Shown here piece by piece: positions 4,808 to 42,186 of a stretch of 64,000 nucleotides of DNA (positions are counted from its first letter, which is position 1; each line of letters opens with the position of its first letter). The notes under the pieces were generated by a model. The model was not told where the DNA came from. It did not search any database and worked only from the letters and a program-made list of their open reading frames with translations. The stretch is from a phage. The stretch lies in the sequence record PZ154896.1; one strand, 5' to 3'. Position numbers and translations under genes: made by a program.

Positions 4808-4835
4808 GCAAAAAAAAGGAACTCCGAAGAGTTCC
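4808..4835 (-). terminator. rho-independent terminator
   Basis: minus-strand hairpin GGAACTC-ttcg-GAGTTCC followed by U9 tract; overlaps stop of the small ORF upstream of gene 47. Confidence 0.6.
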
Positions 4836-4837
4836 TA

Positions 4838-5008
4838 TCCACATAGTACACCGTACAAAGGCTCATTTGAACTTTTAAATCGAATGGGCTTGTATGTAAT
4901 AGTTCCTTCGGCTTTAGCTTTATCATAAGACTCTTTAAAACGTCTCATTCTTTCTGCTTTGCCTTTACGGATTTTATCGAAATTTTCAGAGGTCAGGTCG
5001 TTCGTCAT
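4838..5008 (-). CDS. small hypothetical protein (56 aa), below ORF-track cutoff
   Basis: hand-translated ORF MTNDLTSENFDKIRKG... with SD GAGGTGA 8 nt upstream, ending at the terminator. Confidence 0.3.
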
Positions 5009-28652: not shown

Positions 28653-28982
28653 TTATACTCTAGGCTTTTGAGCTTGTTTGGTATTGGATTCCCATGCGGC
28701 TTTGGTAATTTTGTTAGCGGCATAACCAAAGGCATTAGATAGAACACCTTTAGAGTTGAATACATCCAATCCAATAAGTACACCTGCTGTGTTAAATTTA
28801 GGAGCAAAGTACGCATTAGTTTTAGAAAGAGCTTTTTTCAATTCAGGGTCTTGAACCAAGCCATCAAAAACGCCTTTACCATTTACTTTATATGTTACTT
28901 TGGGATTTTTAGCTTCTTCGATAGCAGCTTTCTGTTCCGCAGATAGTGTAACTTCAGTAATAAATTCTTGATAGGTTTTCAT
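28653..28982 (-). CDS. internal-protein-like capsid-targeted protein (IP family)
   Basis: starts MKTYQEFITE (capsid targeting sequence, IxE cleavage motif); 109 aa. Confidence 0.65.
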   Translation of the reverse strand: MKTYQEFITEVTLSAEQKAAIEEAKNPKVTYKVNGKGVFDGLVQDPELKKALSKTNAYFAPKFNTAGVLIGLDVFNSKGVLSNAFGYAANKITKAAWESNTKQAQKPRV

Positions 28983-29043
28983 TTTGTTCTCTCTAGGTTT
29001 AGACCATTCCATGGCCCATGAATTGTCCATTTTCCGTATTTAC

Positions 29044-29093
29044 CACTCCAAGTAATTATGAATATACTATCACAATTCTAGGAGAAAGTAAAC
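29044..29093 (-). promoter_or_regulatory. PeSL-like early promoter cassette
   Basis: rc: GTTTAC, CTCC/GGAG inverted repeat around TAGTAT. Confidence 0.5.
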
Positions 29094-29095
29094 TG

Positions 29096-29398
29096 TTATT
29101 TACCTTTAATTACTTTAGCTGCTTCGATAGCCGCTTGCTGAAGGTCGTCCATAGACATACCGAATTTAGAAGCAAAGTTATCAATTTTCTTTTCGACCGC
29201 ATTCAAAGGCTTGGCCTGTTTACCTTCATTAGCGCCTGGAAGAGCGAGAATACGCTCTTTGTCAATATAAAGGCTTACAAGTTTCTTACGGTCTTTATCG
29301 GACAAATCATGAAATGAATGGGCCTTTTTATTTATAGCGGCTTCTAATTTACCTGCGCTCACTCGCGCTTCAGTAATAAATTCTTGATATGTTTTCAT
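29096..29398 (-). CDS. ipII: internal protein II-like
   Basis: 100 aa; starts MKTYQEFITEA; size matches T4 IPII. Confidence 0.6.
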   Translation of the reverse strand: MKTYQEFITEARVSAGKLEAAINKKAHSFHDLSDKDRKKLVSLYIDKERILALPGANEGKQAKPLNAVEKKIDNFASKFGMSMDDLQQAAIEAAKVIKGK

Positions 29399-29439
29399 AT
29401 GTTTCCTTTAAATGTAAATAGGCCTAAATATAGGCCTTA

Positions 29440-30018
29440 TTAATTACCACGGGCTGCATTAGCAACGGCATAAGCGTACTGAACATTAGCGTCTTTAAAC
29501 GTACCTTTAGAGGTATCTATTTCTGCCTTAAAGCCGCCTTTAGCCATAACATCGGCAAATTCTTTACGGAAAGCCATTGCATCAAGACCTTTCCATGATG
29601 ATTTGTGCTTGGCGAATTCAAGACCAGCGTAGTTGACAGCCTTAGCTAATTTATTATCAATAACCCATTTACCGGCTTTAGGCACAAACTTCGGTCCTTT
29701 TTGTTTAGAGAACAGTTTTAAATTCCAGCGACGAAGATCACTGTCGGCTTTAACAAAAGCTGCATCTAAGTTACTAGCAACAACATCTTCAATATGAGCA
29801 AATTTAAGTCCGTCAACTTCAATATTTAGATCGTTACGCCAGCGAAGTCCTTCCCAAGCGAAGGCTTTAAAATCAGAAGCTTTTGTGGCTAGATATCGTT
29901 CAAGTGGAGCAGTTTTAGGGTCAAAGCCGTTTCCGCCACGATAAGTCCACTCGTCCTTATTAATGCCTTGAGCTTTTCCTGCAAAGGCCTCGGCGATAAA
30001 TTCTTTATATGTTTTCAT
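29440..30018 (-). CDS. ipIII: internal protein III-like
   Basis: 192 aa; starts MKTYKEFIAEA; size matches T4 IPIII. Confidence 0.6.
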   Translation of the reverse strand: MKTYKEFIAEAFAGKAQGINKDEWTYRGGNGFDPKTAPLERYLATKASDFKAFAWEGLRWRNDLNIEVDGLKFAHIEDVVASNLDAAFVKADSDLRRWNLKLFSKQKGPKFVPKAGKWVIDNKLAKAVNYAGLEFAKHKSSWKGLDAMAFRKEFADVMAKGGFKAEIDTSKGTFKDANVQYAYAVANAARGN

Positions 30019-30036
30019 TTTTGTTTCCTTGTTTGT

Positions 30037-30078
30037 TTTGATAGAGTAATTATACCATATTAATACTTAAGCGTAAAC
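30037..30078 (-). promoter_or_regulatory. early promoter cassette
   Basis: rc: GTTTAC-N18-TATAAT. Confidence 0.55.
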
Positions 30079-30081
30079 TGT

Positions 30082-30342
30082 TTAAGCTTTACCGCCGGAA
30101 ATAATTCCGAAGTTGTTAAAATCGTATCCAATATCGTCAACATCTACTTTAGGGCTTGCTACAACATAAGCAATTTCACTACGTTTTGCATAGGTGTTGA
30201 TTTCTTTACCATCGCCACCTAAGAAAAAATACCCATTACGTTTTAATGAGCCAAAGTCTTCCGCATCACCAATGAAAGCTTTAACTTTAAATTTAGGACC
30301 TTTGGCATCTGCTTCAGCGATAAATTCTTGATACATTTTCAT
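30082..30342 (-). CDS. internal-protein-like capsid-targeted protein
   Basis: 86 aa; starts MKMYQEFIAEA. Confidence 0.6.
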   Translation of the reverse strand: MKMYQEFIAEADAKGPKFKVKAFIGDAEDFGSLKRNGYFFLGGDGKEINTYAKRSEIAYVVASPKVDVDDIGYDFNNFGIISGGKA

Positions 30343-30348
30343 TTTTCC

Positions 30349-30762
30349 TTAGTAAATTGATTTACCATAGTATTTGTACCAAGTAGGGCGCTGAGCAATT
30401 TTTTCATCTAAGCGTGCTTGACTTATCGCAATGGACGCTTCGGACGGGACATAATTATTACGAAATTCGGCAGGGATGTCGGAAATATCTTGGACAGTTG
30501 TGTCCTTGATTTTGAAACCACGTTTCAAGCATTCAGCGATTAACTCGATTTGACGTAAACGTAAAAATTCGAGTTTGTCGTAAAAGAATGTTACATGACC
30601 TGTGCCTAAGATAAATGTTGGAGAGATTTTAAAATCCTTTACACGTTTACCGTTTTGAACATGTTTACGGACTGCACCAAATACGCGTGGTAATTCACGA
30701 TACTCTGCCATAAGATGTTGGTCGGTCAGTTCAGAAACAAGTGTTAAATTGATACGAGTCAT
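30349..30762 (-). CDS. denV: endonuclease V (pyrimidine-dimer DNA glycosylase)
   Basis: start [12 protein letters not shown]; near-colinear by recall with T4 DenV; 137 aa. Confidence 0.9.
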
Positions 30763-30766
30763 AATT

Positions 30767-30819
30767 TCCTCCAAGTAGTTGATGAATGTATAGTATCAAA
30801 GTCCTTGGAGGAAGTAAAC
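30767..30819 (-). promoter_or_regulatory. PeSL-like cassette upstream of denV
   Basis: rc: GTTTAC; inverted repeat CCTCCAAGG/CTTGGAGG, 3' arm contains the denV SD. Confidence 0.55.
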
Positions 30820-30820
30820 A

Positions 30821-31102
30821 CTATTTTTCTGAAGCGCCTGAAATATATTTTTCAAGACGTTGTTTCATCAGCGAGCCGTTCTTAGCGATTTCTTCCGGTT
30901 TATCGCACATACGTAACAAGGCTTCAAGCTTAACGATATCACTGGTGCGCTCAAATTTGCGAGTATCTATCTTACTAGCAAGTTCAGAAATACGTGCTAA
31001 TAGACTTTCAGCTTCAACCAAAGCTGCACCTAGCTTAGTTGCAAATGTGTCAGTAGCTTCGTTAAGAATAGATTCTGATAAAAATTCACTATATGTTTTC
31101 AT
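30821..31102 (-). CDS. internal-protein-like capsid-targeted protein
   Basis: starts [10 protein letters not shown]; ATG overlaps gene e stop (ATGA). Confidence 0.6.
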
Positions 31103-38724: not shown

Positions 38725-38744
38725 AATATTCTCCCCATGTTTTG

Positions 38745-38781: not shown

Positions 38782-38812
38782 AACTTTTTCAGTAAGTTAT
38801 AGACCCCCTAAT

Positions 38813-38828
38813 GGGGACCGAAGTCCCC
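38813..38828 (-). other. UUCG-tetraloop hairpin just 3' of a stop codon
   Basis: GGGGAC-UUCG-GUCCCC, 6 nt after the 38834-39460 stop; same flanking motif as 19806-19821. Confidence 0.45.
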
Positions 38829-38833
38829 ATTCT

Positions 38834-39460
38834 TTACTTACGAGTTTTTGCATACTGAGCAGCGTCAGCAGCCAAACGACCTGCCTGACGAAGTTTTTCT
38901 TTAATCGCATCGTGAAGTGGTTGAGTATACTTCAAACCTTCGATAGTCAAATAAAGACGATAAAGGTCTGGGGTATCAAGGTTGTTGATATGTTGGCCAT
39001 TACGAAGACTGTTGAATTCACGAACGAGTGAAGATGTATCGGATTCAATATCGCGAACAAGCGAAGATAGTTGTTTATATTTTTTTTCCAGGCTAGAAGT
39101 ATCAAACTTAAGAGCAGGAGCTTTAGGAGTTGCTTTTACTTCCGGCTTAGGCTCAGGTTTTGCTATTGCTTTAGGGGTCGCAGGTTTAGGAACGGTAGGA
39201 GCAGGTTTTACTTTAGGCGAACCCGATTTAGCAGAAACACCGCCACTAACAATATCTTTGAACGCTTTAGAAGCTCTGTAATATTCTTTTTGGCTGGAAG
39301 TGTCGATACCATACATGGCTTGAACGTTTTTGAAAAACTCTGTACTAGTTTTTGTACCAGAAATAGCATCGTAAGCAGCTTGCCATTTCTCTTTTGTCAT
39401 ACGTACACCGGCTTCGGTGATTACTTCCGTTTCGGCTAAAAATTCATTAAAAGTATACAT
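38834..39460 (-). CDS. capsid-targeting-sequence protein with Pro/Lys-rich linker
   Basis: 208 aa; N-terminus MYTFNEFLAE resembles IP capsid targeting sequence; central PKPxxP low-complexity region. Confidence 0.5.
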   Translation of the reverse strand: MYTFNEFLAETEVITEAGVRMTKEKWQAAYDAISGTKTSTEFFKNVQAMYGIDTSSQKEYYRASKAFKDIVSGGVSAKSGSPKVKPAPTVPKPATPKAIAKPEPKPEVKATPKAPALKFDTSSLEKKYKQLSSLVRDIESDTSSLVREFNSLRNGQHINNLDTPDLYRLYLTIEGLKYTQPLHDAIKEKLRQAGRLAADAAQYAKTRK

Positions 39461-39504
39461 TGATGGTCCTTAGAAAGTAGGTTTATTGTTTACTATATTT
39501 ATAC

Positions 39505-39535
39505 AAAAAAGCCCCAACCTTTCGGAAGGGGCTAT
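39505..39535 (-). terminator. rho-independent terminator
   Basis: stem as at 22946-22975 with GAAA loop, followed by U6. Confidence 0.65.
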
Positions 39536-39574
39536 ATACCTTGTCGGGGTTTCCACCTACTAAGGCAAGTGTTT

Positions 39575-39670
39575 GTACGAAACGCCGGGATTCGAACCCG
39601 GTTATTAAGCAGTTGACGCTACTCAATATTTTTAAAAGGCCATATCTCGACCATATCCGAACGTTCCGTC
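39575..39670 (-). ncRNA. candidate tRNA-like stable RNA (possibly an RNA C/D analog)
   Basis: tRNA-like T-arm CCGGG-UUCGAAU-CCCGG and acceptor-like pairing CGGAACG/CGUUUCG about 90 nt apart, but no canonical D or anticodon arms. Confidence 0.25.
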
Positions 39671-41877: not shown

Positions 41878-42186
41878 CTATTTTATTCCACGTGATGCAA
41901 TCGTATTCTGCCGTTTAACGCCAGTTTGTTTAAAGTCATGACTGTCGATTTGATCGGTACGAGCAACTCCGAACGATGATTTAATCTTAGCTTTAGATCC
42001 TTTAGTTATAGAAATAAACATCTCAGAGGACCCTTTCTTAAAGTCTGATGCAGATACTTCAACGCCGTTCTTAGCAAGTGACCTCAGAATTGCATCTGCG
42101 TACTCATCATCAAGACTCGCTTGAGTATTAATAACGAATGTCTTTGGCGCAGCTGCTTCACAGATAAATTCTTTAAATGTTTTCAT
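41878..42186 (-). CDS. internal protein at the ipI locus (IPI-like, divergent)
   Basis: 102 aa; starts MKTFKEFICEA; immediately upstream of 57B as ipI is in T4. Confidence 0.6.
   Translation of the reverse strand: MKTFKEFICEAAAPKTFVINTQASLDDEYADAILRSLAKNGVEVSASDFKKGSSEMFISITKGSKAKIKSSFGVARTDQIDSHDFKQTGVKRQNTIASRGIK

Follow-up and report, generated by a model that had tools for sequence, protein, structure and literature searches.

The 64,000-nucleotide stretch of phage DNA analysed here (sequence record PZ154896.1; hereafter the window) belongs to a Mosigvirus, that is, an RB69-like T-even phage. Its minus strand carries, behind a unit of tRNAs and stable RNAs, an open reading frame (ORF) of 208 amino acids plus stop with an ATG start (38834..39460; N-terminus MYTFNEFLAETEVITEAGVRM), whose first ten residues resemble the capsid targeting sequence (hereafter the tag) of the T-even internal proteins (Ips). 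The region is 99% identical to that of Mosigvirus phages HX01, JS09, UGJNEcP1 and others, and the product of the ORF (hereafter the focal gene) is 100% identical to HX01 gp043 and JS09_035. Judged from sequence comparison and structure prediction, the focal gene probably encodes a previously unrecognised T-even Ip, a reading to which a probability of roughly 0.7 is given. The coordinates of the gene, its signals and its surroundings are collected in Table 1.

The first-pass annotation of this DNA had reported a 208-residue ORF starting with MYTFNEFLAE, and it is present exactly as placed; all features listed for it were found, although its location on the minus strand had gone unmentioned. The same source had called the protein large, which holds in a relative sense: it is the longest product among the seven tag-bearing ORFs of the window, but the next has 192 residues.

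Table 1. Features of the focal gene and its surroundings in the window
Feature	Position (strand)	Residues	Description
Focal ORF	38834..39460 (-)	1-208	ATG start
Capsid-targeting-sequence-like tag	39431..39460 (-)	1-10	MYTFNEFLAE; ends in gp21-type site L-A-E
Spacer	39413..39430 (-)	11-16	TEVITE; length-variable; ends in second [LIV]xE site, ITE↓AG
Helical N-domain	39242..39412 (-)	17-73	AGxRMTKxKWQ...YGIxT...KxYYK...AFK; conserved; pLDDT 81-88 over residues ~20-72
Disordered basic Pro/Lys/Ala-rich linker	39110..39241 (-)	74-117	GVSAKSGSPKVKPAPTVPKPATPKAIAKPEPKPEVKATPKAPAL; pLDDT 33-37
Three-helix C-domain	38837..39109 (-)	118-208	FDTSS..KKY.QL...LVRE..LRNGQHINNL.TPDLY.LYL.IE.LKYTQP; highly conserved
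Intrinsic terminator of the upstream tRNA/rnaD/rnaC unit	39505..39533 (-)		AGCCCC..GAAA..GGGGCU hairpin (39533-39510) plus U6; RNAfold -17.1 kcal/mol
T4-type late promoter	39496..39503 (-)		exact TATAAATA; right after the terminator U-run, 36 nucleotides 5' of the ATG
Shine-Dalgarno sequence	39467..39471 (-)		AAGGA; 6 nucleotides 5' of the ATG, by direct sequence reading
C(UUCG)G tetraloop hairpin	38810..38831 (-)		9-bp stem, 2 nucleotides past the stop codon; -15.5 kcal/mol; no U-tract
tRNA-Met and tRNA-Arg	40354-40200
RB69ORF150c homologue	40181-39840		after the tRNAs
rnaD/rnaC homologues	~39840-39576 (-)		265 nucleotides, 89% identical to the T4 stable RNAs (BLASTN); own terminator next
RB69ORF146c homologue	38724-38221 (-)		first downstream gene
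RB69ORF145c homologue			second downstream gene
frd.3			third downstream gene
e.6			fourth downstream gene
Five tag-bearing ORFs, e/denV cluster	starts 28982, 29398, 30018, 30342, 31102 (-)
Tag-bearing ORF adjoining 57B	41878-42186 (-), start 42186

Tag, cleavage sites and expression signals

The N-termini of 1305 candidate starts, from ORFs of at least 40 amino acids, were scored with BLOSUM62 against MKTYQEFIAE. The focal tag scored 33 and ranked 7 of 1305, next to six canonical ip-like ORFs at 39-47, while the best of the other 1298 starts reached only 21; a regular-expression search for the tag returned exactly seven ORFs from the window and one weak false positive. Of the residues in the capsid targeting sequence of T4, numbers 4 and 7 matter chiefly for targeting, 8 and 10 for processing (PMC9026906, a review of Black's work), and the corresponding F4, F7, L8 and E10 of the focal tag all fit. 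The prohead protease gp21 cleaves after Glu and prefers I/LxE motifs (PMC12991175); the focal protein has two such sites, L8-A9-E10 and I14-T15-E16, at positions 8-10 and inside the first ~19 residues, as looked for in an Ip.

All of the 20-odd N-termini examined in the family of the focal protein read M-x-x-[FY]-x-[EDQ]-[FI]-[LIV]-x-E or a close variant (for example, MKTYNEFLNE, MLKFKEFISE, MLNFNEFITE, MKFKDFLIE, MLQYNEFLKE and MLKFKDILTE), and the tag is retained across genera while the remaining protein diverges or has its C-domain replaced. In most members a second [LIV]xE site stands right before the start of the N-domain (such as ITE↓AG, LSE↓AG, VTE↓AG, IAE↓SG or VLE↓SG) and follows that start through insertions and deletions. 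The two sites coincide in the short forms EcS1 and Marfa, and in the family member P0027 the E10 of the first site is lost and the second site kept. T4 IPI has a like layout (MKTFKEFTSTTTPVSTITE↓A, with ITE↓A after residue 19); thus, cleavage of the focal protein is predicted after E10 and/or E16, and its final mature N-terminus is likely to be A17. The predicted mature product, at ~21-22 kDa and with an isoelectric point of ~9.7, is basic as are most ip-like products of the window. Further [LIV]xE motifs are confined to VRE148 and IKE188, both within predicted helices. By tag score rank, functional positions and family-wide conservation, the divergent capsid targeting sequence that the first-pass annotation had considered plausible is supported at the sequence level, and so is its count of the focal ORF as the seventh candidate of the window.

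The terminator that precedes the gene and the hairpin that follows rnaC in T4 are homologous, and this is where homology of the window with T4 and RB69 stops. The homologue in PG7 has an identical terminator and exact TATAAATA layout upstream, and in Marfa, Q7622, RB69 and RB14 a TATAAATA with one mismatch is found at equal distance upstream. At the 3' side, the UUCG hairpin is probably a 3' stabiliser or the end of the late transcript, and the downstream gene has an early-type promoter-like sequence of its own (GTTTAC...TACTAT). Both hairpins of Table 1 had been anticipated as flanks of the ORF. Read together, the terminator, late promoter, Shine-Dalgarno sequence, ORF and UUCG hairpin make the focal gene a self-contained late cassette. 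The late expression expected of an Ip is indicated, by sequence alone, by the exact TATAAATA behind the terminator.

Domains, family and a polymorphic slot

An AlphaFold2 model was built with nine family sequences; its confidence is given as the predicted local distance difference test (pLDDT). Two folded domains are separated by a linker predicted to be disordered, of which the N-domain, lying N-terminal to the linker, was absent from the first-pass annotation. The linker itself had been described there as Pro/Lys-rich, correctly so: its 44 residues include 11 Pro and 9 Lys/Arg (isoelectric point 10.3), and its length and sequence differ between homologues. An interpretation of the linker as a tandem repeat was rejected, as a repeat search on the DNA was negative and periodicity was absent; its composition is consistent with basic Ala/Pro/Lys DNA-binding tails of the histone H1-like kind, again without repeat periodicity and without a family match. 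Structure prediction, which had been proposed as a check on the C-terminal helical domain, yielded three helices (residues 122-153, 164-177 and 180-206) at pLDDT ~75-88, and the most conserved surface is a helix-loop-helix, LRNGQH(I/M)NNL(D/E)TPDLY..LYL.IE.L(K/R)YTQP. Comparison of the C-domain structure returned generic helical-hairpin matches only; Pfam, PADLOC and PDB-sequence searches with the focal protein, its variants and a family profile gave nothing above noise, and no similarity was found between the mature focal protein and the other six ip-like products of the window.

The focal protein has a single match in PHROGs, PHROG 2280 (unknown function; E = 1e-57). A word-indexed search returned 18 cluster representatives, and an exhaustive HMMER search of 1.84 billion cluster representatives only 13 clusters (E <=1e-3); no cellular relatives were found in the latter, and the traceable clusters are T4-like phage proteins. 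In 50,697 phage records, tblastn matched 139. Full-length homologues occur across genera with E values down to 1e-83, and their insertions and deletions are in-frame only. The fetched records cover Mosigvirus (HX01, RB69), Karamvirus (PG7), Marfavirus (Marfa), Kanagawavirus (Q7622), Jiaodavirus (KP179, ValerieMcCarty01) and Tequatrovirus (RB14), and further tblastn matches include JS98, Dhakavirus CLBP2, Serratia phage CHI14 (Winklervirus chi14), Yersinia phage fHe-Yen9-01, Kosakonia phage 305 and Erwinia phage Vettismorki. Every named member is annotated as "hypothetical protein".

Within this family, the tag and N-domain are fused to at least three types of C-domain that have no detectable similarity to one another. 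Type A is found in the focal protein, PG7, P0022, P0025 and P0027, with the RB14 allele linked distantly and via P0022 only; type B in KP179, Q7622, P0023 and many Jiaodavirus and Kanagawavirus records (for example, L004 2501-3112 and L010 1501-2085); and type C in Serratia phage 92A1 (P0026). Pfam matched none of the fusions that carry type B or type C.

The position of the gene is itself variable between phages. Homology of the window to RB69 and T4 breaks at the terminator (39497-39501), and homology to RB69 is back at 38738. The slot so delimited is occupied in RB69 by ORF149c and ORF148c, with the start MKTYAEFLTE (L006 929-1491, equal to 73428-73990 of record NC_004928); the two are halves of a single gene, interrupted in the RB69 reference sequence by a frameshift. 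The intact allele, RB14ncORF136c (187 amino acids), is present in 165 records, including those of Tequatrovirus RB14, PhAPEC2, pSs-1 and fPS-65. The RB69/RB14 allele is 30% identical to family member P0022 (E = 4e-13), escapes detection by the family profile, and matches the focal protein in BLASTP at E = 0.055. In T4 the slot between rnaC and e.8 is empty. When T4 L007 4826-4855 is compared with RB14 L011 1117-1773, the two RB14 flanks meet at T4 positions 4828-4855 on similar GGGCTTTTT terminator tails, as would be left if recombination between the two terminators had cleanly removed, or introduced, the promoter-gene-terminator cassette. In ValerieMcCarty01 (a Klebsiella phage of Jiaodavirus), gp137 is a 58-residue remnant (L009 1501-1677) consisting of the tag and half of the N-domain followed by out-of-frame sequence, which shows that some Jiaodavirus lineages are losing the gene. 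The focal gene thus has the accessory character of Ip genes: absent in T4, represented by other alleles in RB69 and RB14, truncated in ValerieMcCarty01, and flanked by conserved sequence. On this comparison the slot is a polymorphic tag-gene locus common to many Tevenvirinae.

The gene order shared by HX01, RB69 and T4 is 5-53-4-2-3-1-57A-57B-ipI ... tRNAs - rnaD - rnaC ... e.x genes - nudE - e - ip - denV - ip, and the focal gene lies after the tRNA/rnaC unit and before the e.x genes, outside the head morphogenesis cluster. Two Ip loci are known from the literature (PMC12373910). As the first-pass annotation had held, the gene is in neither of them, that is, neither at 57B-ipI nor at the ipII/ipIII locus around e/denV; it is ~2.4 kb from the ipI-like ORF 41878..42186 and ~7.7 kb from the cluster at 28653-31102. 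Location in a recognised locus is a habit of Ips and no functional requirement. The rnaD/rnaC homology extends over 352 nucleotides, at 89% identity, when the terminator is counted in; Rfam gave zero family matches in the flanking non-coding region, and the identity of these RNAs comes from BLASTN. The HX01 annotation has no RNA there, but a 47-residue coding sequence, gp042 (window ORF 39483..39626), which is probably spurious and sits on the rnaC homologue and its terminator. An assignment of the downstream neighbour as e.8 was rejected: it is the RB69ORF146c homologue, and the window has neither e.8 nor e.7. This homologue, at 167 amino acids, is ~57 residues longer at its C-terminus than that of RB69 (110) or HX01 (101), which suggests a frameshift or fusion difference.

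Some observations concern the other tag-bearing ORFs of the window. One of them, ORF 30821..31102, resembles the focal family in having two cleavage motifs in a row (LSE↓S, LNE↓A). Upstream of the ip-like ORFs starting at 28982, 30018 and 42186 are T4 early-promoter-like sequences, GTTTAC-N17-TAnnnT, in which they differ from the late-only focal gene. A second exact TATAAATA is located at 29329-29336 (-), within the ip-like ORF 29096..29398 and ~350 nucleotides ahead of the ip-like gene that follows; this may be an internal late promoter, or else the match may be fortuitous.

Candidate packaged and injected protein, and its alternatives

As an Ip, the focal protein would be made late in infection by monocistronic transcription from its own TATAAATA promoter, and the tag MYTFNEFLAE would steer it into the scaffolding core as the prohead assembles. 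There gp21 would cleave at LAE10 and/or ITE16 to leave a basic ~21-22 kDa protein within the capsid, which would be held in the packaged DNA and injected along with it; co-injection would enable the protein to act ahead of any phage gene expression. Its proposed architecture is a tag or propeptide, a conserved N-domain, a flexible basic Pro/Lys/Ala linker and an exchangeable C-terminal domain. From the sequence features described, packaging, cleavage and injection, taken jointly, are considered probable. An anti-defence role, for example against a type IV restriction enzyme or another first-response defence of the host, is put at somewhat less than an even chance and is argued by analogy with Ip1-3 and Bas37_0260: Ip1, Ip2 and Ip3 inhibit GmrSD type IV restriction enzymes, a different one each (PMC12373910), the site of action of IPIII is the cytoplasm (PMC9391042), and disruption of Bas37_0260 impairs fitness only where the host retains its type IV restriction systems (bioRxiv 10.1101/2025.11.20.689424).

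The likeness to T4 IPI, IPII and IPIII (Ip1-3) extends to a capsid targeting sequence at the N-terminus that includes a gp21 [I/L]xE site, to propeptide length (10-16 residues in the focal protein and 10-19 in T4 head-core proteins, with the ...ITE↓A of IPI at 19), to a small basic product of a non-essential, polymorphic gene missing in some relatives, and to the lack of similarity to other Ips past the tag, as among Ip1-3 themselves. Polymorphic T-even Ips are reportedly the subject of work by Repoila et al. 1994 and by Mullaney and Black 1996, and in the literature the ipI locus holds hypervariable tag-bearing genes. The focal gene differs from those of the T4 Ips in occupying a third locus past the rnaC terminator, instead of 57B-ipI or e/denV ipII-ipIII, where Ip genes habitually lie, and in having only a late promoter visible, whereas several ip genes of the window have early-promoter-like sequences. 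Its product differs in consisting of two folded domains and a long disordered Pro/Lys/Ala linker, and in an N-domain that is conserved over many genera and paired with at least three C-domains. RB69ORF149c/148c, equal to RB14ncORF136c, shares with it the slot past the rnaC terminator, a tag (here the canonical MKTYAEFLTE) and the layout of N-domain, linker and helical C-domain; this allele, however, is very divergent, has a shorter linker and is followed by e.8, which the window lacks. Bas37_0260, encoded in the ipI locus by a Tequatrovirus of the BASEL collection, is likewise a recently recognised extra tag-bearing protein and a precedent for function of new Ips, but it occupies another locus, and the likeness drawn here is one of description.

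Several results weigh against an injected anti-defence Ip. Position 2 of the tag is Y instead of K, and position 3 is variable within the family. Exact TATAAATA is not enriched across the window (9 found against 8.1 expected), and the promoter argument therefore rests on position and conservation. In the databases searched, the protein has neither sequence nor structural likeness to known anti-defence proteins, including IPI* and characterised inhibitors. Unlike Ip1-3, it has a conserved N-domain and is retained across many genera, a breadth of conservation that could point to a general instead of a host-specific function. A literature search found no virion proteome that covers an intact family member. 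The part examined of the ValerieMcCarty03/04 virion proteome held no matching peptides and is uninformative, as the sequenced relative ValerieMcCarty01 has the 58-residue remnant only. Among other candidate sources, the paper on arabinosyl-hydroxymethylcytosine in RB69 deals with DNA only, the proteome of Morganella MP1 is unrelated, the papers on p000v and fPS-65 contain no proteomics, and neither Nolan 2006 nor Petrov 2010 deals with Ips. As virion mass spectrometry was not found for the family, packaging rests on inference.

That same breadth of conservation, of the N-domain and the overall architecture, is unusual in host-specific anti-defence Ips and would suit the main alternative, an accessory of the prohead core or of DNA condensation, for which the tag would be a prohead address and the head, not the next host, the place of work. 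The protein is predicted to be elongated and helical with a coiled-coil-like hairpin, as scaffolding proteins are, and its Ala/Pro/Lys linker resembles basic DNA-binding tails. The T4 prohead-core proteins gp22, gp67 and gp68 are likewise targeted to the core, helical and gp21-processed; their genes belong to the head-gene cluster, head assembly or shape depends on them, and they are extensively degraded. Neither the location nor the requirement applies to the focal gene: T4 and the ValerieMcCarty phages manage without it, so that it is dispensable for head assembly, and it lies outside the head gene cluster. Scaffold proteins are reportedly degraded at many sites, whereas the focal protein has only two internal [LIV]xE sites. 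Moreover, C-domain swapping and allele polymorphism suit an arms-race effector better, and a core accessory is accordingly deemed unlikely.

With a tag off consensus at position 2 (Y for K), the product could also be a late cytoplasmic protein that is never packaged, the tag being a relic of recombination between ip genes or serving another purpose; that ip genes recombine via conserved tag-coding ends is stated in a passage of PMC12373910 that cites Repoila et al. 1994. The tag, however, is kept at the protein level, with different codons, in homologues at 30-35% identity, which makes a neutral relic unlikely, since decay would be expected of one; despite insertions and deletions, the second [LIV]xE site keeps its place at the start of the N-domain, and the late-promoter timing agrees with prohead assembly. 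An unpackaged protein is thus held to be quite improbable. The adjoining HX01 gp042, itself a doubtful ORF, might prompt the view that the focal ORF too is a chance open frame in non-coding spacer beside stable RNAs. Full-length homologues across genera with in-frame changes only, a promoter, Shine-Dalgarno sequence and 3' hairpin belonging to the ORF itself, and confidently predicted domains all speak otherwise, and this view is effectively refuted by the conservation pattern.

The preferred reading therefore remains that of a packaged and injected Ip, and allele polymorphism together with C-domain swapping fit an arms-race effector. A doubtful but possible extension is that the slot is a third, pan-Tevenvirinae locus of injected proteins, in which the tag, N-domain and basic linker would form a modular carrier for interchangeable C-terminal "warheads". 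The three or more unrelated C-domains and the RB69/RB14 allele would then have been swapped by recombination against differing host defences, with targets possibly other than the GmrSD enzymes hit by Ip1-3.

Meaning for T-even phages

No paper or annotation recognising the focal family or its slot as an Ip locus was found, in a search that did not cover Repoila et al. 1994, reportedly on the ipI locus. The gene merits an annotation such as "putative internal head protein" in place of its present label. It is a testable lead on phage anti-defence biology and no new principle. The natural domain-swap variants would be useful for target mapping, and the protein suggests that a longer, two-domain cargo is naturally loaded via the tag, which is relevant to the engineering of T4 capsids for delivery. 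Host immunity meets injected internal proteins before any other phage product, and this third tag-bearing locus lies in several T4-like genera with a use in phage therapy (Mosigvirus, Dhakavirus, Karamvirus, Jiaodavirus and many Tequatrovirus). As this locus is annotated "hypothetical" everywhere, its recognition would enlarge the catalogue of candidate injected anti-defence factors.

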